A stretch of 58,497 nt of DNA from Pseudomonadota bacterium. GTDB taxonomy: Bacteria; UBA10199; 2-02-FULL-44-16; JBDRGF01. Numbering within the stretch: position 1 is the first letter of the stretch; each line of letters begins with the position of its first letter. Positions 4,443 through 54,557 of the stretch are shown here, piece by piece. Below the pieces are notes generated by a model. The model saw nothing but the letters and a program-made list of their open reading frames with translations. It had not been told where the DNA came from and did not search any database. Location of the stretch: the NCBI GenBank assembly GCA_043818055.1, contig JBDRGF010000002.1:1-58497 (forward strand), read 5' to 3'. A program made the position numbers and the translations under genes.

Positions 4443-4470
4443 ATCGATAGCGAATGAAATATCATAATTT

Positions 4471-5535: not shown

Positions 5536-5682
5536 GATTTTTCCTCCTCCATTATCTGATTTTCAGGCATTTTATACTAGCAAGCACGTACTGTCATCTG
5601 GAATTTAGGATGATGTTGTTTTTTTTCTTGGCCACAACTCATAATTGTAGTAGTTTTCGTTAATCTATTGAGGGGAGGGATT

Positions 5683-37180: not shown

Positions 37181-38080
37181 TTAGGATAAAATAAGCTTTC
37201 TCACTGCCATCCCGCAGTTTGAACCAATCTCGTTTTCCCTCAGATCTCCAATAGAAACGATTACATCAAATCCATTGCTGATAAGTTTTCTGGAAATTTT
37301 CTCAACCCGATCTGATATCACATCATTCATTTCACTTGTCATGCAGTTTATTTGTGAATTCGAGGTTGGATTGACAGGTGTGATCTTGATGCAGAACTTT
37401 TTGGGGCTGAATGTATTACATAAAATTTCAGAATCCATTTTTGAATCCTTTGTCAGCGCGAAGTTGAGTGAAGCCTTTCTTTTATCTCCGCTGATAAATT
37501 TAGTTCCATATTCAGATATCTCTTTCAGGTTCCATTTCGGCGTTGGCATCAGATAGTCGCGCTCAACATCTGAAGTTGAATGAACTGAAAATTGCAGCTG
37601 AAATTCGTCAGAATAATACTCTCTTTTGATCTCTAAAAGCTTTTCAAACCAGTTGTTGCTTGCCTTAGGTGCGATTGTGGAGATGCAGGGAATTAAGTTT
37701 TTTGTGTCATAGAGAGTTGGCAGTTTTTTGAGAACTTCCAGAACAGCGGGGTTTAATGCCGGCTCGCCCATCCTTGCGAACTGTATTTTGAATTTTTTGC
37801 ATTTCTCAGGTTTTGTCGTTGAATTCTGAACGATAAAATCGATTTGTTTGAGCATTTCGTCGGCTGTTAAGTTACCATGGAACTCACTTCCCGCATCGCA
37901 GATGGGGCATTTTACAGGGCATCCAAATTGTGTCGATATGATGATGACCCACTTTTCAGTCAGCGGAAGATTTACATCCTTAGCAGAGACAAACTCCGCC
38001 ATGTAGCGTTCATCATCCCTGAATTTCGCCACAAAAACTTGAGCTAAATCCGCATCACCTTGTCGATGTAATATTTTCAT
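37181..38080 (-). CDS. RlmN/Cfr-like radical SAM enzyme (short, divergent)
   Basis: STQFGCPVKCPIC, RMGEP, LQFSVHS, C-terminal GSNCG; lacks RlmN N-terminal domain. Confidence 0.85.
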   Translation of the reverse strand: MKILHRQGDADLAQVFVAKFRDDERYMAEFVSAKDVNLPLTEKWVIIISTQFGCPVKCPICDAGSEFHGNLTADEMLKQIDFIVQNSTTKPEKCKKFKIQFARMGEPALNPAVLEVLKKLPTLYDTKNLIPCISTIAPKASNNWFEKLLEIKREYYSDEFQLQFSVHSTSDVERDYLMPTPKWNLKEISEYGTKFISGDKRKASLNFALTKDSKMDSEILCNTFSPKKFCIKITPVNPTSNSQINCMTSEMNDVISDRVEKISRKLISNGFDVIVSIGDLRENEIGSNCGMAVRKLILS

Positions 38081-38140: not shown

Positions 38141-40969
38141 TTAATATTCCGGCATAGTGCCAAATTCGTTTTCAAGGGCTTTTAGCTGGATGCGGATTTG
38201 TTTGTCAATTTCTTTAAAGAGATGATTGTCATTTTCGGTTTTCTTAAGTTTAGCTACGATCTCTTCACTTGAACAGGCTTTGAGCAGGGCGAGTTGAACC
38301 AGGTTTGGATCCTCTTTGGACTGGATATCAGGGTTATAGACATTGTTGATGATGTTGTGAATTTTTGGAATCGATAGGAGCTCGGAAAAATCTTCGCTTT
38401 GAATTGCAGTCGCCCAAACACCAATTTCATTCTCCCCATCTTTTTGAGCGGTTGAGATCTGTTTTCTTATAACCTCTATCTGATCAGTAATTCTCAATGT
38501 CTGAGTCGGTGCTGGAGCTGAAAAATTGATGTAGTCAAGAATCTGTTTTAGATAGTTGGTGTGGTGCTCAAAGTCAGCCAATACGTTTTGAATAGAATCT
38601 AATTCCGATGTGGAGATTGGAGCGTTGGCTTCAACGAATTTCTTAGCCTGATCGGTCCCATCTTGCCATTGCCTTGCCTCTGCTTCGAGCAGTGTGATGC
38701 CAAATCTAAATTTCTGCCGGTCTTTAGCAGAGTTGAATAATGTAGGTAGATGAGAATATATCTCAAGGCACTTCGGATCTTTGTGTAATAGGGTGTTGAT
38801 GTCGTCAATGGAAAGGGATTCTTTTGCTTCAACTGATTGGTTAAATTGTTTGCTTGCTTCTCCAGCTGAGCTGTGTTCAAGCAATGTCTTTTTATCCCAA
38901 CTTATTAGCCACCTCCAGCTGTTGCGGTTTTCACGGACGAGAATTGGAGGAAGCCCGTTTCGTTTTAGAGTGGAGTTGATTTTTGTTGCAGCGATTTTAA
39001 AGAGGTGATTGGGCGAAGATTTTAACTGTTTAGAGTCCCAACTAAAAAGTGGATAGCCTATAATGCAGTGGACGGAGCGAATACCTTTTGTTGCACATCG
39101 GGTGATGTGTTCGATAAGCCTTTTAGCCTGCTTGTTGTTTTCGAATTCTAGCTTTTTGCTTTTCACGAAAACAGTTCCATCCCAGTGTATGTTGAGATCA
39201 TCGAATGATTGGAATGTCAGTTTTAATTGCTGTGAACGTAATTGAGCGATAGTTGAATTCAGATTTGTCTCTTTTTGAGTTAAGGTCGTGATTTTTCGTT
39301 CAAGATTATTGAGTTTATCCTTTTGGGAATTCCCCCATTTTATCAATGCCGCACGCTTTGCTTTTAGAATTTTATGTTCACCAAGGATGTTTTCCATTTG
39401 AAGCATGTTTTGTACATATCTCTCCTGTAAAGATCTGTAGCGGCGCTTTGTTTTGATAAATATTAAGCTGCCTACGCTCAATAGACCAATCAGAACACCT
39501 CCAAAATAGAAAGACGATTTGTCTATTGCTGTAATAATTATTTTTTTTCTCAACGAATTTGCCGCGTTTATGGTGGTTTGATGTACGATTTCAAGTGGCT
39601 TTCGCTGAGCGATCTGTTCCCAGATTTGCCAAATGTGATCTCTGATCAGTTCGTTTTCTACGAGCTCACCCCACTCAGGAATCGATGGGTAACTTTTTCC
39701 TTTATTGAGTGCTTCTTGAAATACGCGCATACCTGGTTTTCTAAAATAGTGTTCCATTTCACTATTTCTTGCTGGGAGAAATGATGTGGCATCAGAATAG
39801 CGACTTTGCGATGAAGAAGATGTAAGAAATTTTACTAGCTCAATAGCACGTTTAAAATTGCCTCTTTCTTTTGTTGCGTGCCATATTCCGAGGTTTGATC
39901 CACCAATGAATGGGTGGCTTCCGTGGCTTCCTGCTGGTAGAAGGGATACTCCAATTTTTTTATACCATCCCTTTTTGAGCCGGCTAATAAACCATGGCCC
40001 TGTAATGATTGAAGCGTAATGTCCTTTTATAAATTCGGTTTCCAAAGTTTCCAGGTTGATCGAAGGCACTAAAGCGGATCCATTTTGGGAAAGGTTATGT
40101 AGATAAGTAATTGCTTTAAGCGATTCTCTACTATCCAGCTTTACGGAATGAAATGGAATTCCACCCAAGGATTTTACCTCCAATATATCTCCTCCCTCAC
40201 CCCACAGCCAAGGGGAAAGATTGTGTAACAAATCCCATTTGCTCCCTATTGGAAAAGCTATCACAGCATCAATTTCAGGATGTTCTTTAAGAATCTCAGG
40301 ACAGTTTTTTATAAAGCTATGAGTGTTTTGAAAAATCGAATTGCCATTTTTAACTTTATCTTTGTGGTAAAAAACTATGCGCGTTTCTACAAACCATGGT
40401 GCGGCGAAAACACCTCCCATTTTGTGAGGTTTTACACTTTTAAGTGCATGATCAAAAAAAGCATTTTCATCAATTTCACCCTTGATGTTAAGTAATGCAC
40501 CCTTGTTTGCAAAGTAAGCTGTCCAGGTTGTTCCGATCTGGACGATATCTGGCAGTTTATCGATCTCTTTTTGTTCAATTGCTGATGTCAGTCTGTTGAA
40601 AGCGTTTTGCCAGCGAATGATTTCAATTACTATGGTTTCATTTGTTTTTGATTCTTTTTGAAATCTTTTGAGTTCGTCTATGAATTGGCTTTGCCAAATG
40701 ACGTGATTTCCCAATGGAAAATCCCCACCTTGTTGACTAGGAAGCAAAAAGTCGTAAGGATTATTTTCAATTACAATGCCCGACTCATTTTTTAATTTCG
40801 AAATGAAAGATGTTACATTTTTTTGAGTGAGATTATTTTCTAGATGTTTGGGCTCATTTGGCATGACCCAAATACGGAGAGGATGAGCATAAGCAACTGA
40901 AAAGTTTGAAATCAGCAACAGAAGTCCGAGGATTGTAGCTATTAGACATTCTCTAAGGCTTATGTTCAT
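38141..40969 (-). CDS. extracellular solute-binding domain - TM - coiled coil - putative winged-HTH regulator fusion
   Basis: Signal peptide; PDIVQIGTTW, PWFVETR, FIGGSNL, AIELVKFLTS (family-1 SBP); TM FYFGGVLIGLLSVGSLIFI; coiled coil; OmpR/SARP-like segment. Confidence 0.75.
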   Translation of the reverse strand: MNISLRECLIATILGLLLLISNFSVAYAHPLRIWVMPNEPKHLENNLTQKNVTSFISKLKNESGIVIENNPYDFLLPSQQGGDFPLGNHVIWQSQFIDELKRFQKESKTNETIVIEIIRWQNAFNRLTSAIEQKEIDKLPDIVQIGTTWTAYFANKGALLNIKGEIDENAFFDHALKSVKPHKMGGVFAAPWFVETRIVFYHKDKVKNGNSIFQNTHSFIKNCPEILKEHPEIDAVIAFPIGSKWDLLHNLSPWLWGEGGDILEVKSLGGIPFHSVKLDSRESLKAITYLHNLSQNGSALVPSINLETLETEFIKGHYASIITGPWFISRLKKGWYKKIGVSLLPAGSHGSHPFIGGSNLGIWHATKERGNFKRAIELVKFLTSSSSQSRYSDATSFLPARNSEMEHYFRKPGMRVFQEALNKGKSYPSIPEWGELVENELIRDHIWQIWEQIAQRKPLEIVHQTTINAANSLRKKIIITAIDKSSFYFGGVLIGLLSVGSLIFIKTKRRYRSLQERYVQNMLQMENILGEHKILKAKRAALIKWGNSQKDKLNNLERKITTLTQKETNLNSTIAQLRSQQLKLTFQSFDDLNIHWDGTVFVKSKKLEFENNKQAKRLIEHITRCATKGIRSVHCIIGYPLFSWDSKQLKSSPNHLFKIAATKINSTLKRNGLPPILVRENRNSWRWLISWDKKTLLEHSSAGEASKQFNQSVEAKESLSIDDINTLLHKDPKCLEIYSHLPTLFNSAKDRQKFRFGITLLEAEARQWQDGTDQAKKFVEANAPISTSELDSIQNVLADFEHHTNYLKQILDYINFSAPAPTQTLRITDQIEVIRKQISTAQKDGENEIGVWATAIQSEDFSELLSIPKIHNIINNVYNPDIQSKEDPNLVQLALLKACSSEEIVAKLKKTENDNHLFKEIDKQIRIQLKALENEFGTMPEY

Positions 40970-41133
40970 ACATTTTCGTATATCCCATATGGCATATTAA
41001 TCAAGCTCTTTTAAAACAGGGGTTTATGTCGTTTTGTTAAACCTTTCCTCAATTTATCTGAAACGTTTCATTATATATAATTGTAATTGGAACAATAGAG
41101 TGCATATCATCTCATCAATACGGGGGTGTGTTT

Positions 41134-44100
41134 ATGGATAAAAGAAATATTTTTACTTCTACGATATTCTTATTTTTCATTTTTGCCTTATGTCTTGGGA
41201 GTTGTGTTGCCCCGCCTGAAACAGCCACAGACGCAACTTATGATACAGACTATGCCCCGCCTAAAAAAGAATATCCCACGATATTTGTTCACGGACATGG
41301 CAACGATGTATGGGCGTGGCAGCCGATGATCGAGAGGGTCAAAGGCAGTCGTCAGGTATATCGCAATGGAGAGGCTTTCTATGCTGGGGATGAAATCAAA
41401 GGGACTTATGATAAAAATTCAATATGGAATTTTGGTTATTACAAAGAACGTTATTATGAGAGGGATCAGTATCCGTATTATGGCAGAATTGGGGGAATAC
41501 CAATTAAGCGGACAAATAAGATGTATAATGTTCTCGGGGATGTTTACGTAAGAAAGGCAGATTGTACAACGTTGTACTATATCGGGGGAGCGTGTGATCC
41601 AAATCAAACTCCTATAACGGTTGAAGACACCGAATATGAAAGCAGGGTGAGCTATGCAGATCAGCTACGACGGGCTGTAGATAAAATACTGGCTGCGACT
41701 GGGGCAGAGAAGGTCAATATTGTTGCACATTCCATGGGTGGTCTTGTCGCACGCTCGTATATCAAATGGCTCGGTGGGAATGATAAAGTATATAGAATTC
41801 TGACTGTTGGAACTCCAAATCATGGAGTTTCAGATCTGGGCGAGCATATCATGCAATTCGGTCTTATAGTAGGTATCTTCGGAGGAATGAACCCCGACCC
41901 CGACTGGCAAAAAATTGGCGAAGACATTGAGATGTATCCCAAAGCTGTAGATGATTATCACTTCGATAAAACACCTAATGATATTCCCTTGTATGATGGC
42001 AAGAGCTTTATTCAACAATTGAATGATGGAGGAATGATCGTTTCTCCTGTGCAATATGCTACAATAGCAGGAGATTATCACGATATCGTTTTATCATCAT
42101 TTGAACTGTTGGGAATCGATCATCTTAAAAGAAATGGGGTGCCGGCAGATCCTCAAGATGATGTTGTCGTAAATATCAGGGAAGTGCAGATTGAGGGAGC
42201 TGAGTTCAATACGATAGTTCATGCTGCTCACGGCAGGCCCGAAAAGGATAAGGATTTAAAGGGAATAAATGATCCAGACCTTCTTTTAACCGAATCGGGT
42301 GCGACTGCCTCAATCATCGGACGCTGGATATTGGGAGACGTAGGTGAAGAACTTGCACCCGATATCGATTACGATGGCGATGGAATTTCAAATCTGGATG
42401 ACAACTGCCCCGCAGTCGCGAATCCGGATCAGGCAAACCGGGACGGAGATTATAATGGTGATGCGTGTGATCCGGATCCTGACATACCTTATGATGCAAT
42501 CTCTGCATCTCCCCTTTCTCACGACATCGGTGAGGATGATGATCAGGATGGCATTGTGTGGTCTGTCGATAACTGTCTTTACGTGTATAATCCGGATCAG
42601 GTTAACACCGACAGCGACTATCGTGGAGACGCGTGCGATCCTGATGATGATAATGACGGCGTAAAAGATATAAATGATTTATTTCCCCTCGATCCAAAGG
42701 AGTGGATTGATACTGACAAGGATGGAACGGGTGACAATGCTGATCTCGATGACGATGGCGATGGACTATCTGATCAGATAGAGGCGAGTTTAGGAAGCAA
42801 TCCGCTTGATCCAAGTTCAAAACCGATTGATACAGACGACGATGGCCTGCCGGATCTGCTGGATCCCGATGATGATAATGACGGTGTGCTTGATCAAAAT
42901 GATGCGTTTCCGCTTGATCCAAGCGAATCGATCGACACTGATGGTGATAAAATTGGAAACAATGTGGACACTGATGATGACGGTGATGGTTATTCGGATG
43001 AATTGGAGGATATGGAAAATACAGATCCACTCAATCCGCTATCAAAACCTTCGGATATCGATAAGGATGGTATTCCCGACAGCACCGATACGGATATCGA
43101 TGGCGACAGCTATGAGAATACAAAAGATATCTTTCCCCTCAATCCAAGGGAATGGCTCGATACGGATGGCGATGGGATAGGAAATAATGCCGATACGGAT
43201 GACGATGGTGATCTTTATACGGATGCTGTGGAGATACAGGTTGGATCGGATCCTCTCGACCTGAATTCAAAACCGGCAGATCATGATGGTGACTTCATCC
43301 CGGACAGCATGGATCCCGACGATGACAACGATGGTGTATTGGATGTGGACGATCCGAGTCCCTTTGATCCAGCAGTATCCGTTGATACAGATGGTGATGG
43401 CATCGATGACAGGATTGATACGGATGATGACAACGATGGATATAGCGATGTGATGGAGATAAGCTGTGGTGCCAATCATCTGGACGCAAACTCAAAGCCG
43501 GCAGATAACGATAAAGATGGGACACCGGACATCCTGGATTCAGATGATGACAACGATGGTGTTCCCGATCTGAACGACGCCTTTCCATTTGATCCGGGCG
43601 AGTCGCTGGATAGTGATGGTGATGGAATAGGAAATAATGCCGATACGGATGATGATGGCGATGGTTACGTTGATGTGTTGGAAATTCAATTTGGAACGGA
43701 TCCTCTGAATTCAGCGTCGAAGCCAAAGGATTTCGACAAAGATGGCAATCCTGATTCGACTGATTCGGATGATGATAACGATACATATGTCGATTCGAAT
43801 GATCTCTTCCCCTACGATAAAACGGAATGGGCGGATTTCGACAGGGACGGTATCGGTGATAACCGGGATCTGGACGACGACAACGATGGATATCCGGACA
43901 GCGTTGAGATAGATGAGGGGACAAATCCTTTCGATGCCAATTCAAAGCCAAACGATCTGGATAAGGATCTGATTCCTGATAGCATAGATGATGATATCGA
44001 TGGTGATGGTTATCTCAATCAAAATGATGTCTTCCCAAGGGATCCAAGTGAGTGGAGCGACTTCGATCGGGACGGCGTAGGAGATAATGCCGATCCGGAC

Positions 44101-44829
44101 GATGACAACGATGAAATGCCTGATTGGTGGGAGTTGCAATACGGTCTGAATCCAAAATATGCTGAGGATGCGTCTATGGATAAAGATGGTGATGGCATTC
44201 GGAACGATTCAGAATATGCGCACGACACCGACCCGACAAACCATTGCGATCCGATTCAATACGATTTTTGTTACTATTACGACATTCCGGATGCAGGGAC
44301 AGATGCGGGACAGTGTCGTTTAAATCCATCTGAGGCATTAGGTGAAAGATGTGTTCCGCTAGGCAGCTGGTCGCAAAAGGCGATTGTGGATACAGATGGT
44401 CGTCCGGGCTGGTGTGAACAGCGATTTATAATCCGAACGAAATTCGAATGTCCGAGCAATTTGGAAGTGTGTATGGATTTTATGCCTGTCGGTTGGGAAT
44501 GTTCGATGGATATTGGTCTATGCACTATTGGAAGGTTCTCACAGTGTAGAAATCCGGGCACACATTGTGCAAAAGCCAATACATGGACCAGCACAATAGG
44601 TTTAGACATGGATGATGATAGGGGTTGGTGTGAGCAACAATTTTTTATAAATGGCCCACCTCAATTTTTCCTTGAGATGGAGTTTTCCGGCAGCACTAAC
44701 GGCCAATGCAAAAACATGGGAACATCGACAGCGAATACATATGGCGGGAAAACGGCGAATATCGGTCTGAATACAAACAGTCAGCCCGGCGGATGTGATG
44801 TGAGATGGAGATTGGGGAAAGAGAATTAA
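41134..44829 (+). CDS. lipoprotein: alpha/beta-hydrolase (lipase-like) + Asp-rich Ca-binding (thrombospondin type 3-like) repeats + Cys-rich C-terminal domain
   Basis: Lipobox LGSC; FVHG, AHSMGG, GTPNHG; DNCP and DxDxDG repeats; three C-terminal GQC...DTDxRxGxC-type repeats. Confidence 0.85.
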   Translation: MDKRNIFTSTIFLFFIFALCLGSCVAPPETATDATYDTDYAPPKKEYPTIFVHGHGNDVWAWQPMIERVKGSRQVYRNGEAFYAGDEIKGTYDKNSIWNFGYYKERYYERDQYPYYGRIGGIPIKRTNKMYNVLGDVYVRKADCTTLYYIGGACDPNQTPITVEDTEYESRVSYADQLRRAVDKILAATGAEKVNIVAHSMGGLVARSYIKWLGGNDKVYRILTVGTPNHGVSDLGEHIMQFGLIVGIFGGMNPDPDWQKIGEDIEMYPKAVDDYHFDKTPNDIPLYDGKSFIQQLNDGGMIVSPVQYATIAGDYHDIVLSSFELLGIDHLKRNGVPADPQDDVVVNIREVQIEGAEFNTIVHAAHGRPEKDKDLKGINDPDLLLTESGATASIIGRWILGDVGEELAPDIDYDGDGISNLDDNCPAVANPDQANRDGDYNGDACDPDPDIPYDAISASPLSHDIGEDDDQDGIVWSVDNCLYVYNPDQVNTDSDYRGDACDPDDDNDGVKDINDLFPLDPKEWIDTDKDGTGDNADLDDDGDGLSDQIEASLGSNPLDPSSKPIDTDDDGLPDLLDPDDDNDGVLDQNDAFPLDPSESIDTDGDKIGNNVDTDDDGDGYSDELEDMENTDPLNPLSKPSDIDKDGIPDSTDTDIDGDSYENTKDIFPLNPREWLDTDGDGIGNNADTDDDGDLYTDAVEIQVGSDPLDLNSKPADHDGDFIPDSMDPDDDNDGVLDVDDPSPFDPAVSVDTDGDGIDDRIDTDDDNDGYSDVMEISCGANHLDANSKPADNDKDGTPDILDSDDDNDGVPDLNDAFPFDPGESLDSDGDGIGNNADTDDDGDGYVDVLEIQFGTDPLNSASKPKDFDKDGNPDSTDSDDDNDTYVDSNDLFPYDKTEWADFDRDGIGDNRDLDDDNDGYPDSVEIDEGTNPFDANSKPNDLDKDLIPDSIDDDIDGDGYLNQNDVFPRDPSEWSDFDRDGVGDNADPDDDNDEMPDWWELQYGLNPKYAEDASMDKDGDGIRNDSEYAHDTDPTNHCDPIQYDFCYYYDIPDAGTDAGQCRLNPSEALGERCVPLGSWSQKAIVDTDGRPGWCEQRFIIRTKFECPSNLEVCMDFMPVGWECSMDIGLCTIGRFSQCRNPGTHCAKANTWTSTIGLDMDDDRGWCEQQFFINGPPQFFLEMEFSGSTNGQCKNMGTSTANTYGGKTANIGLNTNSQPGGCDVRWRLGKEN
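42637..44112 (+). repeat. 75-aa (225-nt) period Asp-rich repeat stalk, copy 1
   Basis: Alternating 35-aa (..FPLDPxE..) and 40-aa (..GSDPLD..) units; colinear with 46874-48349. Confidence 0.9.
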
Positions 44830-44898
44830 AGGGAATTACATATAAATGAACACCAGTTTTTATTTTTGGTGGGGTATCGAAAATAGCAAGGAGGTTGT

Positions 44899-45657
44899 AT
44901 GCAATATTTAGCCATCTTAATCTTATGTTTAACTGTGCTAATTTCATGTGGCGGCAATTCATCTGATGTTGAATCTTCAACTGATCCATCGGTTGTAACA
45001 GAGAATTCGGAATTAGAGACGCTCACCTACTGGACAGATCCAAACACCGGTGACACAGTCCTTGGAGTACAACCCAACATAAATTCGAAGGGAGAACTCT
45101 TAGCTTATAGAGAACAGAAAATCGAAGAAGCTGAGCAAATTTTAGCACTGACAAGGAATAAAAGCGTCGAAAAGCCTTATTATCCGGTAGTCATCACCAT
45201 GAACAAACCGATTTCGCTGGCCGAGGTACGCCAGATGCTTGGCAGATATAATCCATCTGTTGCGAAAGTTTTGAAGTCTGTAGGTTCAATAAATTATCTC
45301 CCAAAGGCAGAATTAGTAAAAAACGAAGATGCTCTGATCATTGGTTCGGTCAAATTTGTTTCAACGGAGGGTGGCGGACAATTATCTTATGACACGCTGA
45401 CCAGGGAAAAAGAGATGTCTAAATTGGAAAAGCAGATCGCATTTAAAGAAAAAGAACTCAATGGCGTTGAAAATTATCGGGTGGTGAAAGGAATCACCAG
45501 CGTAACCGGCGGCATTCATCGCGATAGCATCATGTCGATTCAAGAGGATGCCAATGTTTTTCTGGCAGATATCGGCCCGATTGATATGTACAAGACCAAG
45601 CCCGAAACTGTTTTGTGGAACGATATTTATAGGGATGTCGAAAAATATTCAAAGTAA
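44899..45657 (+). CDS. hypothetical lipoprotein
   Basis: Lipobox LISC, RBS aggagg, between two giant secreted proteins. Confidence 0.8.
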   Translation: MQYLAILILCLTVLISCGGNSSDVESSTDPSVVTENSELETLTYWTDPNTGDTVLGVQPNINSKGELLAYREQKIEEAEQILALTRNKSVEKPYYPVVITMNKPISLAEVRQMLGRYNPSVAKVLKSVGSINYLPKAELVKNEDALIIGSVKFVSTEGGGQLSYDTLTREKEMSKLEKQIAFKEKELNGVENYRVVKGITSVTGGIHRDSIMSIQEDANVFLADIGPIDMYKTKPETVLWNDIYRDVEKYSK

Positions 45658-45685
45658 GTGAAACAAAACTCCTTTTGGAGGACAT

Positions 45686-48600
45686 ATGAATTGTTTAAAA
45701 TTTTCCAAGATGATATTTCTGGTCGCATTTCTAAGCATATTTTTTGCTGTTACGACCTTTGCCGGAGACGAAAGAAGTTATTGTTCACAAGGAGGAGCCG
45801 AAAGGATTCTTTGGGCACCTAATGATCGAATTGGACCGTCTGTTCTGGATGTAGGAAAAGAACGCTGGGATGGTTTTGAAAATTACGACGGTTATTTTTG
45901 GACATTTCATGCCTTCAAGTGGAACAAGGCGCTGTTGGATAATCTTAACAACTCTAATTGTGCTAAGATGGGTGAATTGGACGAGGGTGTTTATGAATTT
46001 CGGCGTGGTCCGGATGAGGGGGCAGCATGGGAATATTGGGATGGCGTTTGGTCCAGGGTCGAAGTTGAATGGTTTTTAATTTTTCCTCGTACAGAGCGGC
46101 GCGTATATTCTGAATATATCACTTCCCTGCCGGGCGCCGGCAACAAAGGAACAGAGGAAACGGATGAGTGGTTTGCAAGTGATGTGCATGCAGGGTATGA
46201 TGTTCTTGGTGGAATTATTGGCTATGCCGTTGGAGGATGGTTAGGTGCCGCGCTTGGCGGTGTTAAGGTCTATCCTCCTGTAGCATTTGATTTTGATAAT
46301 TGCGGCCTAGCAGAACCGCGTGCAGATCCACCTAGTAAATGCGACGAGGAATATGAAATTGGCTTTGATTGGAAAAGATTGGAACCCGATCGTTACTATT
46401 ATACCTCTATTAAATTCAGAACAGATGCCGGAGAGGAAAAAACGCCGGTTGATTGGTACGTTAACTTTCAGACAGAAGAAAGGTATGGCGTTTATATTAA
46501 GAGAATTTATATTCCGCCAGGCTTTGGGTCTTATGACAATCATTATAATTGTTCCACTGATACAGGGACATGGTCATTTGATTATGATTCTTCCCCTCGA
46601 CTGAAAGATAATAAACTGTCTAAACTTGGGACATGCGTTGACTCCGATCGTGATGGAACGGCCGATGATGACGACAACTGCCCTAGCATTTCCAATCCAG
46701 GTCAGGAAAATTATGATAAGGATAATGAAACTATAAAGATTGGCGACGCGTGTGACAGCGATGATGATAACGATCAATACTCCGATGAACTGGAAATTGC
46801 CCTTGGCACAGATCCTCTTGACTCTACCTCAATGCCTGCCGATCAGGATAGAGATCTTATTCCTGATTCTTATGATCCAGACAGCGATAACGATGGTATT
46901 CCCAACGAAAAGGATGCGTTTCCACTTGATCCTAAAGAGTGTGTAGACACTGACAAGGATGGAGTGGGCAACAATACCGACTTGGACGATGATGGTGATG
47001 GATTTGCGGATCAGCTAGAGGCAAGCCTTGGAAGCAATCCGCTTGATCCAGGATCGAGCCCTGTAGATACAGATGATGATGGTCAGCCGGATCTGCTCGA
47101 TCCGGATGACGACAATGACGGTGTGATGGATGAAAATGATGTATTCCCAATAGATGCAAGCGAATCGATTGACACTGATGGGGATAAAATAGGAAACAAT
47201 GCGGATCTTGATGACGATGGAGATGGTTATTCGGATGAACTAGAGGATATAGAAAATACAGACCCACTCAATCCGTTTTCCAAACCTTCGGATATCGATA
47301 AGGATGGCGTTCCCGACAGCACGGATTTGGACATTGATGGCGATGGTTATGAAAACACGAAAGACGCCTTTCCCCGCAATCCAAGGGAATGGCTCGATAC
47401 GGATAGCGATGGGATAGGAGATAATGCCGATCTGGATGATGATAGCGATTTTTATACAGACGTCATCGAAATACATCTGGGTTCCGATCCCCTTGACCTG
47501 AATTCAAAGCCGGCAGATCATGATGACGACTTCATTCCTGATGCACTCGATCCTGATGATGACAACGATGGTGTCTTGGATGTGAACGATCCAAACCCAC
47601 TCGATCCAGCCGTGTCAGTTGATACGGATGGTGACGGCATCGATGACAGGATTGATACGGATGATGACAACGATGGATATGGCGATATGTTGGAGATAAG
47701 TTGTGGCACTGATCATCTGGATGCAAACTCGAAACCCGCAGATAACGATAAGGATGGGACGCCGGACATTCTTGATTCAGATGATGATAACGATGGCGTT
47801 TTCGATCTGAATGATGCATTCCCATTTGATCCGGGCGAGTCGCTGGATAGTGATGGTGATGGGATAGGAAATAATGCCGATACGGATGATGACAACGACG
47901 GTTACGTTGATGTGTTGGAAATTCAGTTTGGAACGGATCCTCTGAATTCAGCGTCGAGCCCAAAGGATTTTGATAAGGATGGCGATCCCGATTCGACAGA
48001 TGCGGATGACGACAATGATACATATCTCGATTCGAATGACCTGTTCCCTTATAATAAAACTGAATGGTCAGATTGTGACAGTGATGGCGTTGGCGATAAC
48101 AGGGATCTTGATGATGATAACGACGGTTATCCGGACAGTGTTGAGATTGATGAGGGAACGAATCCTTTCGATGCCAGTTCGAAGCCTAGTGATTTGGATA
48201 GGGATCTGATTCCTGACAGCATAGATGATGATATCGATGGTGATGGATATCTGAATGGAAATGAGGTCTTTCCAAGGGATCCAAAGGAATGGAGCGATTT
48301 TGATAGGGATGGTCTGGGTGATAATTCAGATCCGGACGACGACAACGACGGATATCCTGACCTGATGGAACTTGATTGTAGCAACTCAGATCCCAAAAAT
48401 TCCCTTTCGATCCCTGATGATTTCGATCGTGACCTCATTCCGGATTGTCAGGATTTAGACAAGGATGGAGATGGATATAATGCCGGTTCATCGACGGATG
48501 ACTGTGACTATGACAAAGAGAGCTGGGGTCCTGATACTGACAATGATTCTCTTTGTAATGAAGGAGGCGCAAATGCAGATAGCGACGATGATAACGATGG

Positions 48601-48823
48601 GTTTAGCGATTTAACAGAGGTGATGTGTGGATTAGACCCTTATAGAAAAGACTCTCAGTCAGGTGACAATGACGGGGATACGCTTCCTAACCGGTGTGAG
48701 TGCCATTATGGTGTAAATGCTAATGATAAGAATTCTCCGTCCTGGATTTATTGGTACACTAAAGAGATTGTGTTTTTTAGACCGATACCGGCAGGTGGAA
48801 ATGGGAAGTGTGCCGTTTTTTAG
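45686..48823 (+). CDS. secreted protein: uncharacterised N-terminal domain with glycine zipper + Asp-rich Ca-binding repeats
   Basis: Signal peptide (TTFA-G); VLGGIIGYAVGGWLGAALGG; DDNCP and DxDxDG repeats. Confidence 0.82.
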   Translation: MNCLKFSKMIFLVAFLSIFFAVTTFAGDERSYCSQGGAERILWAPNDRIGPSVLDVGKERWDGFENYDGYFWTFHAFKWNKALLDNLNNSNCAKMGELDEGVYEFRRGPDEGAAWEYWDGVWSRVEVEWFLIFPRTERRVYSEYITSLPGAGNKGTEETDEWFASDVHAGYDVLGGIIGYAVGGWLGAALGGVKVYPPVAFDFDNCGLAEPRADPPSKCDEEYEIGFDWKRLEPDRYYYTSIKFRTDAGEEKTPVDWYVNFQTEERYGVYIKRIYIPPGFGSYDNHYNCSTDTGTWSFDYDSSPRLKDNKLSKLGTCVDSDRDGTADDDDNCPSISNPGQENYDKDNETIKIGDACDSDDDNDQYSDELEIALGTDPLDSTSMPADQDRDLIPDSYDPDSDNDGIPNEKDAFPLDPKECVDTDKDGVGNNTDLDDDGDGFADQLEASLGSNPLDPGSSPVDTDDDGQPDLLDPDDDNDGVMDENDVFPIDASESIDTDGDKIGNNADLDDDGDGYSDELEDIENTDPLNPFSKPSDIDKDGVPDSTDLDIDGDGYENTKDAFPRNPREWLDTDSDGIGDNADLDDDSDFYTDVIEIHLGSDPLDLNSKPADHDDDFIPDALDPDDDNDGVLDVNDPNPLDPAVSVDTDGDGIDDRIDTDDDNDGYGDMLEISCGTDHLDANSKPADNDKDGTPDILDSDDDNDGVFDLNDAFPFDPGESLDSDGDGIGNNADTDDDNDGYVDVLEIQFGTDPLNSASSPKDFDKDGDPDSTDADDDNDTYLDSNDLFPYNKTEWSDCDSDGVGDNRDLDDDNDGYPDSVEIDEGTNPFDASSKPSDLDRDLIPDSIDDDIDGDGYLNGNEVFPRDPKEWSDFDRDGLGDNSDPDDDNDGYPDLMELDCSNSDPKNSLSIPDDFDRDLIPDCQDLDKDGDGYNAGSSTDDCDYDKESWGPDTDNDSLCNEGGANADSDDDNDGFSDLTEVMCGLDPYRKDSQSGDNDGDTLPNRCECHYGVNANDKNSPSWIYWYTKEIVFFRPIPAGGNGKCAVF
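46874..48349 (+). repeat. 75-aa period Asp-rich repeat stalk, copy 2
   Basis: Same length and unit order as 42637-44112, offset 4237 bp. Confidence 0.9.
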
Positions 48824-48866
48824 GAAGCAGAGAAATTTAGTCTAAAATAATTGCTGAGAGGAAACA

Positions 48867-51743
48867 ATGATGAAAAAATATTTGCTATCATTTTTTTTAA
48901 TTCTTCTATTCAGTTCATTCTCTATGCCGGCACTTGCCATCGATACCGACGGGGATAAATACGATGACAGCGTTGAGATATCTGAAGGTAGCGATTGGAG
49001 GGATCCTGCTTCAAGGCCGGCCGATTGCGATGGCGATTTCAATCCCGACAGCACCGATGCAGATGATGATAACGATGGCGCTTCCGATGTGAACGATGCA
49101 TTTCGATGCGATCCAAATGAGTGGCTCGATACTGATAATGATAGTATTGGCAACAACGCTGATTTCGATGATGATGGTGACGGATTTAGTGATTCGATCG
49201 AAATAAGAGAGGGAACTGATCCGCTGAACAAGGTCTCCAAACCGAAGGACTTTGATAAGGATGGCGATCCCGATTCGACAGATCCAGACGATGATAACGA
49301 CGGCTATGCCGATAACAATGACGCTTTCACATTCAATAAAGCAGAATGGCTTGATACAGACGGAGATGGGATAGGCAACAACGCTGATCCCGATGATGAT
49401 AACGATGGTTACCTTGACAATGACGAGATCGTCTGTGGAACCGATCCGTTGGATAAAAATTCAATCCCGCCCGACAACGATCACGATTATAAACCAGACG
49501 CGCTCGATCCCGACGATGACAACGATGGTGTCCTCGACGTGAATGATGCCTTTCCTCTCGATTCAAGGGATTTTCGGGATACCGATGGAGACGGGATTGG
49601 CGATAGAACTGACGATGATGATGATGGCGACGGGTATAGCGATATCCTTGAGATTAACGAAGGAAGCGATCCGCTGGATAAAAATTCAAAGCCAAAGGAC
49701 AACGATGACGATCTTATCCCTGATAGCATTGATACGGATGACGACAACGACGGCATCTTAGATGAGAGTGATGCTTTGCCATTTGACCCGACTGAGTTTG
49801 AAGACACAGATAGCGATGGAATAGGAAATAACGCCGATACGGATGATGATGGCGATGGATATTGTGACGATATTGAAAAGACCGAGGGGACAGATTCTTT
49901 AAACAGCGCTTCACAGCCGTCGGATACAGATAAGGATTTTATCCCGGACAGCATAGATCCCGATGATGATAACGACGGTTACAACGACGATGTCGATCTC
50001 TTTCCAAAGGATCGCAACAACTGGATCGACACGGATGAAGACGGTCTGGGCGACAACACCGACTTGGATGATGACAGCGATAACACGTCAGATGTAAACG
50101 ATGCGTTTCCACTGGACAAGAATGAAAGCATTGATACGGACGGCGATAAAATAGGTGATAACGCCGATCCTGATGACGATAATGACGGCGTGGTCGATTC
50201 CAGGGATGAATTTCCAAAGGATGCCGGAAAGTGGAGCGATATCGATGGGGACGACATCGATGATAACCTAGACGTCGACAGTTGGATGGATGGATTTGAA
50301 TCGGCGGATTTTTCGAGATGGGATGAAAGTGAAGGATCATTCAATGACAAAATGCTGAACGGCTTTGTGGCCTATAATCAAAATTTCGGTTGCGAAGTTA
50401 TTGGAAAAGGGAGTCTGATTAAGCGCTTTGGTTCATTTGCACACAGGGTAATAATCAGGGCATGGGTAGAACTTAAAAATCCAAAGAATCTCTCTTTTAT
50501 TTTGAAGACAGCAGATGGATTTGTTGTAGGTAAATTTGAGTTTGTTTCTGATGGGGTCTTGCAATATTCATCTCTGCTTTCAGAGAGGTTTGCATATAGT
50601 GTCCCGCTCGATCGATGGCTCAAATTAAAATTGATCAGGGATACATCTGATGGGACAATCCGAATCTATATCGATGACAGGATTATTTATTCGAGGATCG
50701 GTGATCGAAGAAATATTTTAATCGATAGTTTCGAAATATCTGCTGGCTCTAAAACAGAGTTCTATCTCGATGATGTAGGTTATTGGGTTGACGATGATTT
50801 GGATGACGATGGAATCAGGAATATGGATGATCCGGATGACGACAACGACGGAATCATTGATTCAGAAGATATGTTCCCTCTGGATGAGAGCGAATGGGTC
50901 GATACCGATCTCGACGGCATAGGTAATAATGAGGATGCAGACGACGATGGCGATTTTATCGCTGATGAAAATGACGAATTTCCTTTGAACAGGGATGAAT
51001 GGTCAGACTCTGATCATGATGGCATCGGAAACAATGCCGAAACGGATGATGACAACGATGGTGTGTTAGACCAATTCGATGTCTTTCCGTCAGATTCGGA
51101 GGAGACGCTCGATGCCGATAGTGACGGTATTGGCGACAACGAGGATCCCGATGACGATAACGATGGGGTTTTGGATTCAATAGAAATTCTGTATGGATTG
51201 AACAGCAATTCTGTCGATAGCGATGGCGACGGTGTCATGGATGGCGATGAGATAGCGCCTTTTGAGGATACCGATGGGGATGGTTTGATCAACGTGCTTG
51301 ATCCCGACAGCGACAATGATGGTTTGACTGATGGTGTTGAGATGGGTGTGACCTCTCCGATCCTGGGAAAGGCTTTTATTTTGGGAACGCTATTTCCTCC
51401 CCTTTCTAAGGGGAGGTTAGGAGGGGTGGTTTCTTTCGATGCCATCATCGATCACGATCCCTCTACTACAACCGATCCGCTCAATCCAGACTCAGATGGT
51501 GCAGGTTTGATGGATGGCGAGGAGGATCTGAATAAGAACGGAAGGGTTGATCCAGGAGAACGCGATCCGCTTAATTCAGATGATGACACATATCCAAACG
51601 AACTAACAGGTTCTGCGTCTGCCGGTTGCCAGCTTTTGAGTGGAGTCGGCACGGGTTCAAATAATATCTTAGTGATGATGTTCCTGTTGATAACATCTGT
51701 GGGTGTTTTACAAGGTATTAAAGGAGAGGGAGATGCAGCTTAG
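48867..51743 (+). CDS. surface protein with Asp-rich Ca-binding repeats, central beta-sandwich (lectin/LamG-like) domain and C-terminal Cys+TM sorting signal
   Basis: Signal peptide (PALA-I); repeats start immediately; WMDGFES...FYLDDV domain; ends SAGCQL + hydrophobic helix; overlaps the ompA start. Confidence 0.82.
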   Translation: MMKKYLLSFFLILLFSSFSMPALAIDTDGDKYDDSVEISEGSDWRDPASRPADCDGDFNPDSTDADDDNDGASDVNDAFRCDPNEWLDTDNDSIGNNADFDDDGDGFSDSIEIREGTDPLNKVSKPKDFDKDGDPDSTDPDDDNDGYADNNDAFTFNKAEWLDTDGDGIGNNADPDDDNDGYLDNDEIVCGTDPLDKNSIPPDNDHDYKPDALDPDDDNDGVLDVNDAFPLDSRDFRDTDGDGIGDRTDDDDDGDGYSDILEINEGSDPLDKNSKPKDNDDDLIPDSIDTDDDNDGILDESDALPFDPTEFEDTDSDGIGNNADTDDDGDGYCDDIEKTEGTDSLNSASQPSDTDKDFIPDSIDPDDDNDGYNDDVDLFPKDRNNWIDTDEDGLGDNTDLDDDSDNTSDVNDAFPLDKNESIDTDGDKIGDNADPDDDNDGVVDSRDEFPKDAGKWSDIDGDDIDDNLDVDSWMDGFESADFSRWDESEGSFNDKMLNGFVAYNQNFGCEVIGKGSLIKRFGSFAHRVIIRAWVELKNPKNLSFILKTADGFVVGKFEFVSDGVLQYSSLLSERFAYSVPLDRWLKLKLIRDTSDGTIRIYIDDRIIYSRIGDRRNILIDSFEISAGSKTEFYLDDVGYWVDDDLDDDGIRNMDDPDDDNDGIIDSEDMFPLDESEWVDTDLDGIGNNEDADDDGDFIADENDEFPLNRDEWSDSDHDGIGNNAETDDDNDGVLDQFDVFPSDSEETLDADSDGIGDNEDPDDDNDGVLDSIEILYGLNSNSVDSDGDGVMDGDEIAPFEDTDGDGLINVLDPDSDNDGLTDGVEMGVTSPILGKAFILGTLFPPLSKGRLGGVVSFDAIIDHDPSTTTDPLNPDSDGAGLMDGEEDLNKNGRVDPGERDPLNSDDDTYPNELTGSASAGCQLLSGVGTGSNNILVMMFLLITSVGVLQGIKGEGDAA

Positions 51744-53001
51744 ATTGTTGTACCCGGCTTTAATCATTATTATTATTCCAGTTTTAGCGTTTGCCCAAAA
51801 TACAAACCTTGCCGGATACAATATCCAGAACTTCCGGCCGGCCTCCGACAACAGAAGGCTTTTGCAGCTTTCTGAATCCGCTACTCTTGGTCATCTGAAT
51901 ATTCAGACCGGAGTCTGTTTCAACGGCAGCCATGGACTGCTCTCCGCAGGCAATCCAGTGAACAATAGCACTGTTGATATTATCGACACTATGATCACGG
52001 GCGATTTTCTCTTTGGGATTGGAATTTCAGATTATGTCGATTTGGGAATTGATCTCCCAATCTATTTTTTTGAACGAGGCAGGGATTTCAATAATGCAAA
52101 GCCGTTTGATACGATGGGTGTGGGAGATGTCAGGCTCGATGCGAAATTCAGATTGGTAAAAGACAGGGACTCTATCCCGGGTGTGGCGATTAGTTCATCA
52201 TTATATTTGCCGACCGGTTCAAGGAGCAAATTCACAGGATATAAAAATGTCGCATTTGAGGGAAGCCTAGTTGTCGATAAGAAGATCAGGGATTTCTATA
52301 TTTCGGCAAACACTGGCTATCGGGTTTTGCCACGCCACACATTTGCAAACATGGTAATAGATGATGAGATGACTTTTGGCCTGGGTGCTGCCTACACGCT
52401 CCCCATTTGGAACAAGACGCTAGATCTCACAGCCGAAGTATTTGGCTCCGCTGTGGTAAGAAAGTTTCAGGAGATCACAACCCCACTGGAAATATTGGCA
52501 GGTGTGAAAAAGAGATTCGTGTTCGACAGGCTGGCTATGACTCTGGCAGGGGGAAGGGGAATAACAAAGGCAAACGGTTCTCCCGATTATAGAGCAGTCT
52601 TTGGCATCAACTATCTGTTTGAACATGTTGAGAAAAAAAGAGTGGGTGATTCTACAAGAAAGCCAAAGATGCTAAAGATTACGATCTATTTCGATTTCGA
52701 TAGCGCAAACTTAAATCCAAGGTATCGCGCAATATTGGATGAACTGATGCAGAACTTCGAAGATGATGAGTTCGAACAAATACAGATAGAAGGATACGCC
52801 GACAATATTGGAACAAAGAATTACAATCTTGAGCTCTCAAAAAGACGTGCCTTTGCTGTACAAAAATTCTTCGCTGAAAAAGGGATCAAAGATAAAGCGA
52901 TGACGGTAAAATATTACGGCGAAGAACATCCGGCGACATCAAACTCGACAAAAGATGGCCGCGCTCAAAACCGCCGGGTGGAGATTGACGGGGGTAGATG
53001 A
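51733..53001 (+). CDS. OmpA-family protein with N-terminal beta-barrel (TraB-like architecture)
   Basis: Signal peptide; NFRP, GVGDVRLDAK, LPTG, PDYRAVFGINY barrel; OmpA C-domain IYFDFDS, IEGYAD, NLELSKRRA, NRRVE; RBS aaggag. Confidence 0.9.
   Translation: MQLRLLYPALIIIIIPVLAFAQNTNLAGYNIQNFRPASDNRRLLQLSESATLGHLNIQTGVCFNGSHGLLSAGNPVNNSTVDIIDTMITGDFLFGIGISDYVDLGIDLPIYFFERGRDFNNAKPFDTMGVGDVRLDAKFRLVKDRDSIPGVAISSSLYLPTGSRSKFTGYKNVAFEGSLVVDKKIRDFYISANTGYRVLPRHTFANMVIDDEMTFGLGAAYTLPIWNKTLDLTAEVFGSAVVRKFQEITTPLEILAGVKKRFVFDRLAMTLAGGRGITKANGSPDYRAVFGINYLFEHVEKKRVGDSTRKPKMLKITIYFDFDSANLNPRYRAILDELMQNFEDDEFEQIQIEGYADNIGTKNYNLELSKRRAFAVQKFFAEKGIKDKAMTVKYYGEEHPATSNSTKDGRAQNRRVEIDGGR
52940..52986 (+). 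repeat. 47-bp direct repeat, copy 1 (ompA 3' end)
   Basis: caaactcgacaaaagatggccgcgctcaaaaccgccgggtggagatt; one mismatch to 58291-58337. Confidence 0.9.
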
Positions 53002-53037
53002 GGATTTTGAAAATAATAAAAAACTCAGGAGGTGTTT

Positions 53038-54510
53038 ATGTCAACGCTGCCAATTGGAAGAAGTTGCAATTTTAATAACTACAAAGGTGTTTTTTGTTGT
53101 ATTGGAGAGACTCAAAATATAAGAGTTTATTCTTCTCATGGAAAGTTTGTAAAAGGGATAAAACCTAAAGATTCCGTCAGATATGTTTCAGTTCGCCCAA
53201 CCTCTTGGTGTGCTGTTGATCAAAAGGGATATCAACTATTGCCTATTGTGAAAAAATTGGAACACAAAAATTGGAAAGTTAGAGAAAGGGCAATATTAGA
53301 GTTGGCCAAGCTTGGTAAAGCCGCTGCTCCGGTTATTCCCGTATTGAGAAAAATAATTTATGATCTGAGAAACAATTTGCCAAATCCATGTAAGATATCT
53401 GGAATTGAATATTTGCGGGATAGAGGTCACTTGCGGTGGATCACTGCAAAGGGTTTTAATTATCTTTTAATTGAAGGAGTGTTTTCCGTTTTAAAAAACA
53501 TCGGTCAAGGTGCTCTTCCTTTATTGGTGTCTCTGCTGAACGATCGCAATGCGAATATTCGTTTACTTGCTTCTGAATCTTTAAAGGAGATGAGGATAAA
53601 AACACATACAGTGCTTCGATCGTTAGCTAAAAATTTAAATGACCACAATGTTTGGGTGCGTTTATCAGTTGTTGATGCGCTATATAGTTGGGGTACTACA
53701 GCAGTGCCATATTTAAAGATTGCCCTAAAAGACGGCCATGGGTGGGTCCGCGATCGTGCGATACTTCAATTGCACCGTTTAGGGGAAAAATCAATTATCT
53801 GTGTGAGAGATCTGGTTATTTTATCAATATCAGATCCAATTCAAATGATTAGAAAAAAATCTGCACAAGCCGTGGCTGAGATTGCTCCAACCAAAGCAAT
53901 TGCACTTCTAAATTCCACTTTAAGAAATCGTCGTTGGAAAATTCGCAAAGCAGCTGTGGAAGCTTTACGGTATTTTAATTCACGTGCATTGCCTTTGCTT
54001 AAGATTGCATTGCGTGATTCAAGCTACAGAGTTCGCAAGGCAGTTGTATTTTCTGTTTATGATATTGACGCGTCCGGTGTTATTGCATTATTGAGGAGGG
54101 CGTTGAAAGATCGAAATTGGAGAGTTAGAAAAGCTGCTGTTGCTGTGCTTGCAAACAAAGTTGTTAGGTATTATCCAGATAATAGCTATCTTGAGCTGAT
54201 CTCTTTACTTAGAAGTGCCCTAAACGATCAAAACTTTAAGGTTAGGATGACTGTTGTTAAAGAATCGGAGCGTTTTATTGGATTGCCGTCAGAATCTAAA
54301 AGATTTATTAATGAACTAATCTATCTTATGAGGATCAGTTTGAAAGATCATGACTGGAGGATTAGGAAAGCTTCTGTGAAAAGGCTAGGTTCTCTTCATG
54401 GAAAGGCCAAGTTAGCTTTTTCTGAAATTAAAAAACTGCTTATAGATAGAAATGCCAGTGTTCGTATCGCTGCGGCAGATGCTTTATATAAAATCTGCTG
54501 TGTGAAATAA
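53038..54510 (+). CDS. HEAT-repeat (PBS lyase-like) protein
   Basis: About ten L.D.(N/D)W.VR..A repeats; RBS aggagg. Confidence 0.88.
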   Translation: MSTLPIGRSCNFNNYKGVFCCIGETQNIRVYSSHGKFVKGIKPKDSVRYVSVRPTSWCAVDQKGYQLLPIVKKLEHKNWKVRERAILELAKLGKAAAPVIPVLRKIIYDLRNNLPNPCKISGIEYLRDRGHLRWITAKGFNYLLIEGVFSVLKNIGQGALPLLVSLLNDRNANIRLLASESLKEMRIKTHTVLRSLAKNLNDHNVWVRLSVVDALYSWGTTAVPYLKIALKDGHGWVRDRAILQLHRLGEKSIICVRDLVILSISDPIQMIRKKSAQAVAEIAPTKAIALLNSTLRNRRWKIRKAAVEALRYFNSRALPLLKIALRDSSYRVRKAVVFSVYDIDASGVIALLRRALKDRNWRVRKAAVAVLANKVVRYYPDNSYLELISLLRSALNDQNFKVRMTVVKESERFIGLPSESKRFINELIYLMRISLKDHDWRIRKASVKRLGSLHGKAKLAFSEIKKLLIDRNASVRIAAADALYKICCVK

Positions 54511-54557
54511 AAAAAATAGATAAGACACCTAAATAATCTCATAATTAGGAGGAAAGC

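Follow-up and report, generated by a model that had tools for sequence, protein, structure and literature searches.

A predicted mosaic of surface-protein modules, with a TraB-type outer-membrane barrel and a divergent sugar-binding sensor, in a Pseudomonadota genome

The window studied here is a stretch of 58,497 nucleotides (positions 1 to 58,497 of contig JBDRGF010000002.1, assembly GCA_043818055.1, from a Pseudomonadota bacterium), in which positions 38141 to 53001 hold five genes on one strand, g1 to g5, and the gene of a membrane-bound sensor that diverges from them. Judged from its sequence, this locus is a mosaic composed of a Cys-tailed protein paired with an outer-membrane barrel (g4-g5), a small lipoprotein paired with a secreted protein (g2-g3), a lipase carried on a duplicated g3 stalk (g1) and a sugar-binding sensor. 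We put at roughly one in two the probability that this mosaic is a surface-display cassette which responds to sugars and helps the cell stick to and digest surfaces, and not a device for kin recognition or membrane exchange. In such a cassette three proteins would hold different heads on the same acidic 75-residue stalk, which is predicted to stiffen with calcium; g5 would serve such surface proteins as an outer-membrane dock tethered to the cell wall, probably the general role of its barrel family, of which myxobacterial TraB would be one specialised case; g4 would work like a MYXO-CTERM client docked on this TraB-type barrel; and the divergent membrane protein would sense periplasmic oligosaccharides and turn the cassette on. 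An initial annotation of this DNA, made from the letters alone, had described a cluster of five same-strand genes with a divergent sensor, and all six open reading frames (ORFs) sit at the positions first claimed:

38141..40969, minus strand: sensor gene, ORF confirmed, divergent from the five-gene cluster
41134..44829, plus strand (ORF opens at 41128, ATG at 41134): g1, lipoprotein with lipase head, 75-residue repeat stalk and Cys-rich C-terminus
44899..45657, plus strand: g2, lipoprotein of no named family
45686..48823, plus strand: g3, Sec-secreted, with a rare beta-sandwich head, a 75-residue repeat stalk and a short tail ending in CAVF
48867..51743, plus strand: g4, with signal peptide, 75-residue repeats, globular insert, pre-tail block and a Cys-transmembrane tail
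51733..53001, plus strand: g5, TraB-family outer-membrane barrel fused directly to an OmpA C-terminal domain

The clearest trace of the mosaic history lies in the stalks. As the initial annotation had stated, g1, g3 and g4 all carry repeats with an exact period of 75 residues; these score as TSP3-type repeats, and their matches to thrombospondin and COMP structures suggest that they bind calcium. They share TSP3-type repeats (88-158 bits in g1, g3 and g4) and a surface location with the MtsC-type thrombospondin-repeat cohesion proteins (NF047638), but differ from them in staying under the cut-off of 350, in their regular 75-residue higher-order unit and in their heads. Part of the stalk is common to g1 and g3:

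42682..44111, plus strand: duplicated repeat block, copy 1
46919..48348, plus strand: duplicated repeat block, copy 2

The two copies are 83.7% identical over 1431 bp (86% over 476 residues), their longest exact match is 45 nucleotides, and their differences fall 52/23/160 on the three codon positions, thus mostly on third positions. Because of this codon pattern, and because no exact match exceeds 45 nucleotides, we regard the block as a real, selected duplication, in which the substitution pattern shows purifying selection. The same two features, together with contigs of near-identical sequence from four studies that carry groundwater or biofilm labels (22-30 of 30 region bins covered), rule out an assembly artefact or a collapse of g1 and g3.

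Relatives were sought in 93 genomes of the same phylum, which is separate from that of the myxobacteria; all 93 belong to one class, and the bacterium's own genome is G000 (2.93 Mb, 93.6% complete). These relatives bear above all on g1, whose two ends are as follows:

41203..42357, plus strand: lipase head of g1, with nucleophile elbow AHSMG and candidate Asp and His further on
44248..44826, plus strand: Cys-rich, three-repeat C-terminal domain of g1, which in relatives is the end of g3

That g1 is a lipase-headed lipoprotein is well borne out by Pfam Lipase_2 (PF01674; 33.1 bits against a cut-off of 20.3), the AHSMG elbow and a lipobox Cys; the head also matches class-2 lipase structures from Streptomyces and Bacillus (E-values 3e-14 to 1e-9), and candidate residues for a complete catalytic triad can be picked from the sequence. 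Its C-terminal domain has no match in Pfam, NCBIfam, PDB or ESM Atlas and is 40-42% identical to the tails of g3 relatives. Two genomes, G016 and G017, hold a g3 relative that unites the g3 head, the repeats and the g1-type Cys-rich tail in a single protein; neither a lipase nor g4 or g5 adjoins it. The lipase head, in turn, is 63% identical to that of a G007 protein that combines an ordinary signal peptide with a Cys tail; head, stalk and anchor are thus swapped independently, in keeping with the modular heads first proposed. We suggest that g1 arose when the stalk and tail of g3 were duplicated and received a lipase head, and that g4-g5 would go back to a giant-protein/barrel module also found elsewhere in the same genome. 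In G007 (L043:6765-10699) an lnt-like gene lies directly before the Cys-tailed lipase and the two are divergent from a sensor gene, and three paralogous lipoproteins of 830-870 residues are encoded on contigs C10, C46 and C93 of the studied genome; all contain TSP3 motifs, and two have small OmpA lipoproteins as neighbours.

The conserved unit of the locus is the g2-g3 pair. The identification of g2 as a small lipoprotein stands, since the lipobox Cys is present in 15 of 16 rows of its alignment and the remaining row is truncated at the N-terminus; its 14 homologues are all without a family name. Relatives of g2 and g3 occur in the same three of the 93 genomes, and the two genes are adjacent in all six distinct loci with downstream sequence (the window, G016, G017, L072, L074 and L075; L071, L073 and L076 duplicate G017 and were counted with it as one). 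The g3 head is rare, with nine clusters among 1.84 billion representatives. One natural protein, P0022, is a fusion in which a g2-like region stands ahead of the g3 head (hhalign probability 97.8%, E-value 7.7e-13; 0.2% for the control P0021), and since the pair exists in fused form, g2 is likely to be a split pro-domain of the g3 head. No longer, fused form of g2 emerged from a search that was insensitive, given that P0022 exists. In P0021 and P0023, distant g3 heads follow other extracellular domains, and no g2-like region is present. The model of g2 (predicted local distance difference test, pLDDT, 75.6) has a ferredoxin-like core, and its best structure matches are pro-subtilisin E (3whi; Z score 6.3, root-mean-square deviation (rmsd) 1.9, 63 residues aligned) and POIA1 (1v5i; Z 5.8). 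It therefore shares with the I9 inhibitors and subtilisin propeptides the ferredoxin-like core and an existence both fused before a partner and free, but differs from them in being a lipoprotein with large insertions and a beta-sandwich partner, and the match is weak.

What the g3 head does is best approached through its model and its conserved residues:

45761..46645, plus strand: g3 head, a beta-sandwich with large low-confidence insertions, invariant acidic and Trp motifs and one Cys pair
46202..46258, plus strand: Gly-rich hydrophobic helix in the g3 head, mean hydropathy 1.54, a variable insertion

The model reaches a pLDDT of 65.5, with the insertions poorly modelled, and for neither the head nor g2 did Foldseek return anything at E-values of 0.001 or lower; nor was any ESM Atlas match to the head usable. 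Adhesin and pilin domains match it at Z 8.4-7, for instance at Z 8.4 (rmsd 3.5, 135 residues aligned) and Z 8.1 (rmsd 3.0, 121 aligned). Its invariant Glu, Asp and Trp residues, the acidic ones in the motifs YEFRR, EExD and CDEEYE, and its Cys pair suggest that the head has a binding or catalytic site. We lean slightly towards an adhesin or ligand binder, regard an enzyme as unlikely and a membrane-active domain as unlikelier still. The glycine-zipper head attributed to g3 was half right: a Gly-rich helix is present, but it is kept in just two of 11 aligned heads, and the zipper was rejected as a family trait.

These data also bear on a different reading, in which a predator or epibiont would use the locus to attack neighbouring cells on contact, with a lipase and a membrane-inserting g3 head as weapons, g2 as cap or immunity protein and g4-g5 holding the cells together. 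Its lipase elbow looks intact, and the g3 head ties with gamma-haemolysin, of the leukocidin/haemolysin fold, at Z 8.1 (rmsd 5.8, 151 aligned), followed by alpha-haemolysin (Z 7.2) and CytK (Z 7.1). Close homologues of the head retain a hydrophobic segment that is often clamped by Cys, the strict g2-g3 pairing resembles that of effector and immunity protein, a related giant-protein/barrel module adjoins RHS genes, and the genomes of the lineage are mostly small (about 1-3.7 Mb). However, adhesin and pilin domains match the head equally well or better and at lower rmsd (3.0-3.7), the Foldseek result for the leukocidin/haemolysin type stops at an E-value of 0.02, and the Gly-rich helix is an insertion of two heads in 11. 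Moreover, the P0022 fusion fits a pro-domain more readily than an immunity protein, an immunity gene for the lipase is not evident, and the sensor is predicted to bind sugar-type ligands. We consider such an attack function improbable.

A further part of the surface-display reading is the barrel. The initial annotation had called g5 a beta-barrel/OmpA protein, and Pfam agrees (Phenol_MetA_deg and OmpA, the latter PF00691 at E 2.9e-24). The barrel alone matches the TraB model NF033763 (positions 14-288) at E 1.6e-24, and that model is the best full-length match of g5, at a score of 142 bits against a cut-off of 700; the barrel has no sequence match in PDB. Such barrels are present in 61 of 61 genomes tested, in one to eight copies each, and the studied genome has four, three of which follow a Cys-tailed gene. 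Neighbourhoods were read for 42 barrels (40 regions around the top-ranked of 177 matches, and the four own loci), and a Cys-tailed gene stands directly upstream of 19 of them (13 with a membrane helix, six short and helix-free); another gene stands there in 15 cases and none in eight. By the same home-made rule, which admits some false positives, 24 of 368 other ORFs of these loci end in a Cys tail, and related loci among the 42 are not independent. Because a Cys-tailed gene so commonly directly precedes a barrel, we infer that the two form a general docking module. A tree of 41 barrels pairs g5 with the L072 metagenome barrel as its sister (support 92/56, weak), and both lie within a clade that holds barrels behind surface proteins of 3000 residues.

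The partner of the barrel, g4, has repeats that begin right after its signal peptide (residues 7-25) and three further parts:

50277..50801, plus strand: globular insert of 175 residues
51231..51596, plus strand: pre-tail block, common to the C-termini of surface proteins of about 3000 residues that precede related barrels
51621..51743, plus strand: sorting tail with the AGC motif, Cys921, a transmembrane helix at residues 930-948 and a basic cluster almost lost

No full-length relative of g4 was found. The insert had been called lectin-like, for which no match in Pfam, NCBIfam or PDB gives support, and it has a single weak relative in the 93 genomes (E 1e-5). The pre-tail block has seven full-length matches (50-54% identity), including one from contig C3 of the same genome; six are followed by a Cys tail and then a barrel, the seventh by neither. 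As an obligate barrel-docking module the block holds only partly: weaker relatives sit on tailed proteins without an adjoining barrel, and therefore clients do not all need a neighbouring barrel. With regard to the proposed AGC-plus-helix sorting tail, Cys921 and the helix are in place, whereas an NCBIfam tag-model score and the basic cluster are not. Since about 12 proteins of this genome end in Cys-type tails and the genome has a myxosortase-family protease, it is very likely that g4 ends in a Cys-type sorting signal. Relatives also show tails without a helix, in which GGC is followed by four to eight residues and a stop in a CaaX-like manner, and which swap with the long tail among related 3000-residue proteins:

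L015:6974-15985, L009:3-2213, L012:4305-14000, L053 (three ORFs), L019:13771-15231: helix-free tails
L055, L058:8472-11999, L070:8969-10537: helix-free tails, continued

The last residues of g3 itself are CAVF. On contig C3 (C3:9414-37044) an ORF of 4124 residues starts with an Lnt-like acyltransferase domain, runs into an RHS protein and lies upstream of a Cys-tailed protein of 3129 residues and its barrel, and the giant-protein/barrel module adjoins RHS genes in several relatives (L010, L012, L015).

The architecture of g4-g5 had led to the claim of a TraAB-like anchor pair, and in part this was justified. The barrel is related to TraB, adjacency of tail gene and barrel recurs, and as in traAB (PMC3325183) a Cys-tail gene overlaps the downstream barrel/OmpA gene, here by 11 nucleotides, with the ribosome-binding site of g5 inside the last codons of g4. 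Membership in TraAB is what fails. According to PMC12045341, TraA has a PA14-like variable domain and a Cys-rich stalk with more than 70 Cys, and that paper and PMC6372800 describe TSP3 repeats as the link between the TraB barrel and its OmpA domain. By contrast, g4 has six Cys in 958 residues, no SCNCCP motif, no TraA or PA14 match and no N-terminal PA14-like variable domain, and g5 has no TSP3 match and no DxDxDG between barrel and OmpA, a motif also missing from 39 of the 42 barrels. The TraA model (NF033759) found nothing in the studied genome and nothing over its cut-off in the 93, the best match being short stretches at E 7e-6, in a search whose control genomes hold no TraA and which thus had no positive control. 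Finally, unlike TraB, the barrel is one of four paralogues with unrelated partners in its own genome and belongs to a family that is multi-copy across the phylum. Because of the missing TraA, variable domain and Cys-rich stalk we conclude from sequence comparison that g4-g5 is built like traAB yet is not a member of it.

A true kin-recognition and outer-membrane-exchange pair passing on lipoprotein cargo is accordingly the reading we find hardest to accept, even though the tail gene and barrel overlap as in traAB, TraB is the best full-length model for g5, and both g1 and g2 are lipoproteins. In addition to the domain differences above, the absence of TraA over cut-off in 93 genomes and the many unrelated partners of a multi-copy barrel, there is no SitA-type escort or nuclease domain in g1-g3, and with a glycine zipper that is not conserved, the suggested SitA-type toxin cargo falls away. 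Compared with SitA lipoprotein toxins, as characterised in PMC8546572, g1 is likewise a lipoprotein with a hydrolase domain, but its enzyme is N-terminal and a lipase, with no escort, C-terminal nuclease or downstream cytoplasmic immunity gene. Nor did the idea of a constant anchor pair with variable heads survive: the conserved unit is g2-g3, g4 lacks a full-length relative and the L072 barrel, the closest to g5, has no tail gene before it.

Sorting of g4 and its kin would require a processing machinery, and the genome encodes a candidate for it. An Mrt_core protease (NF040914) scores 118 against a cut-off of 100, as do proteins over that cut-off in 80 of the 93 genomes, and lies on contig C32 (12790-19487) in the gene order lgtA, lipoprotein, ileS, lspA, lgtB, mrt. 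Adjacency of lspA and lgt is by itself ordinary. Among the 30 loci with the highest scores (L077-L106), 26 have an lgtB-like gene immediately ahead of mrt; of the other four, two stop within 60 nucleotides of the gene and two lack lgtB. Two or more Lgt genes are present in 38 of 41 genomes; lgtA and lgtB are 28% identical, and the mrt-linked copies (21 with a readable motif) have GGFV-S/G-x-GA where lgtA has GGLVFLGG. This makes lgtB a candidate acyltransferase for the tail Cys. Guo, Haft and Wall (2025, PMC11980579) leave the cognate acyltransferase unidentified, name Lgt as leading candidate and show in Figure 1B a three-gene mrtX cluster; their E. coli result suggests that a generic Lgt can serve, which weighs against a dedicated lgtB. 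Within what our literature search covered, which left most subscription papers outside, no myxosortase-Lgt link beyond that paper and no MYXO-CTERM in Bdellovibrionota were found.

With the MYXO-CTERM/myxosortase system (TIGR03901, NF040914) the lineage shares the invariant Cys, the membrane helix, many unrelated clients and one Mrt_core protease. It differs in that its tails are silent on TIGR03901, g4 lacks an Arg-rich end, relatives have helix-free tails, and the protease is encoded together with a second Lgt in an lspA-lgt-mrt operon. PMC11980579 and Haft (bioRxiv 10.1101/2023.06.07.544157) place the system in Myxococcota and Bradymonadales only, and the latter states that Cys tails need lineage-specific models. 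GspD is split over two contig ends in the studied genome.

Regulation would fall to the divergent gene. The initial annotation had proposed a one-component transmembrane sensor, of which the solute-binding domain, the membrane helix and a cytoplasmic part are present, but no DNA-binding output domain could be recognised. The protein is predicted to consist of a signal or transmembrane segment, an oligosaccharide-type solute-binding domain (about residues 100-455), a transmembrane helix (487-505), a coiled coil, a further domain and one TPR-like repeat. The solute-binding part matches Pfam SBP_bac_8 and, in PDB, best CbpB (7x0i, E 4e-48) and the sugar-binding 7c63 (E 1e-40), a ligand class more in keeping with the sensing of nutrients or surfaces than of contact. 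Homologues occur in nine of the 93 genomes, all within its own order, and in three of nine other loci the gene is linked to cassette genes, being divergent from g2-g3 (G016), from barrel-g2-g3 (L072) and from an lnt-like gene with the lipase (G007); L072 was reached through g2 and is therefore not a blind sample of this linkage. It often lies near thiC or pyrE-pyrF-hpt.

The same neighbourhoods speak to the possibility that the cluster is an accidental pile-up, in which repeat-driven recombination would have gathered unconnected surface genes at a variable insertion site upstream of the sensor. The five-gene order was seen in this genome alone among the 93 genomes and the retrieved loci, HEAT-repeat or other unrelated genes occupy that site in other sensor loci, shared repeats favour recombination, and the g4 tail appears truncated at the junction with g5. 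On the other hand, the expected co-occurrence of the genes is found in part: sensor, g5, g2 and g3 stand together in L072, in a different order, and sensor, g2 and g3 in G016, although the five-gene cluster does not recur. In addition, the five frames are intact with a ribosome-binding site ahead of each, and the duplicated block bears the mark of purifying selection, and we thus think a mere pile-up unlikely. By sequence g1 and g2 have lipoprotein-type signals and g3, g4 and g5 plain signal peptides. Promoter and terminator scans stayed at chance level (57 vs 47.8; 12 vs 12.2), and single-protein pattern scans turned up no relatives. Contigs of an RNA library span 28 of the 30 bins at low and even depth; DNA carry-over is possible and they are not taken as proof of expression.

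Several observations count against the surface-display reading and its parts, in addition to the tie with gamma-haemolysin. The I9-like matches of g2 (Z 5-6.3) lie under the reliable level of the tool and none reaches 8, and the beta-sandwich model of the g3 head has no subtilase fold and no protease among its matches. No tail gene lies directly upstream of 23 of the 42 barrels, among them the closest relative of g5 (L072, 47% identical), and many Cys-tailed proteins have no adjoining barrel. The g4 tail has one Lys or Arg in its last 16 residues, compared with three to seven in 11 other tails of the genome that were checked, and matches neither TIGR03901 nor another NCBIfam tag, in a test whose control was silent and for which, according to the authors of these models, lineage-specific ones are needed; with basic cluster and hidden-Markov-model score both missing, it may be a decaying signal. 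The cytoplasmic part of the sensor has no helix-turn-helix match in Pfam or PDB (0.2% by hhalign against OmpR domains, one of the six template rows being a wrong-frame ORF). Lastly, unrelated genes neighbour the sensor in six of the nine other loci, one of which is a gapped fragment, and in G017 the g2-g3 pair lies away from it; the linkage may therefore reflect old synteny around thiC and pyrE-pyrF-hpt.

Around the locus, the window holds a further Cys-transmembrane-tailed protein with the AGC motif (231-1091, plus strand), probably cut at the contig start, and, by sequence, two Ser/Thr kinase-like genes with a divergent phosphatase-like gene (1149-6558). Directly downstream of the sensor lies a radical-SAM protein of the RlmN/Cfr kind (37181-38080, minus strand), far under both cut-offs (59 bits of 530; 57 of 290). 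After g5 follow a HEAT-repeat protein and a helical-repeat protein of 1216 residues with low G+C content, 32-36% (53032-58208, plus strand); HEAT genes lie upstream of the sensor in G011 too.

Overall, the five-gene cluster is a one-genome mosaic and as such less important than its modules. For this uncultured phylum we tentatively sketch, at somewhat short of even odds, a complete Cys-tail sorting system with a dedicated Lgt that also accepts helix-free tails, TraB-type barrels that serve as general docks tethered to the cell wall, TraAB as a specialised offshoot, and the present locus as a sugar-regulated output with exchangeable heads and a new pair of pro-domain and head. Two new leads stand out as the strongest, the split pro-domain and the Lgt paralogue next to the myxosortase. 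The first would unite g2 and the g3 head in a new family of two-part proteins that is backed by a natural fusion and has invariant residues, and the second, through a conserved second Lgt, makes testable the question of tail-Cys lipidation posed by the 2025 myxosortase paper. Finally, the TraB barrel may be recast as a widespread docking family that has many Cys-tailed proteins as partners outside myxobacteria, which could provide an outgroup for the origin of kin recognition.

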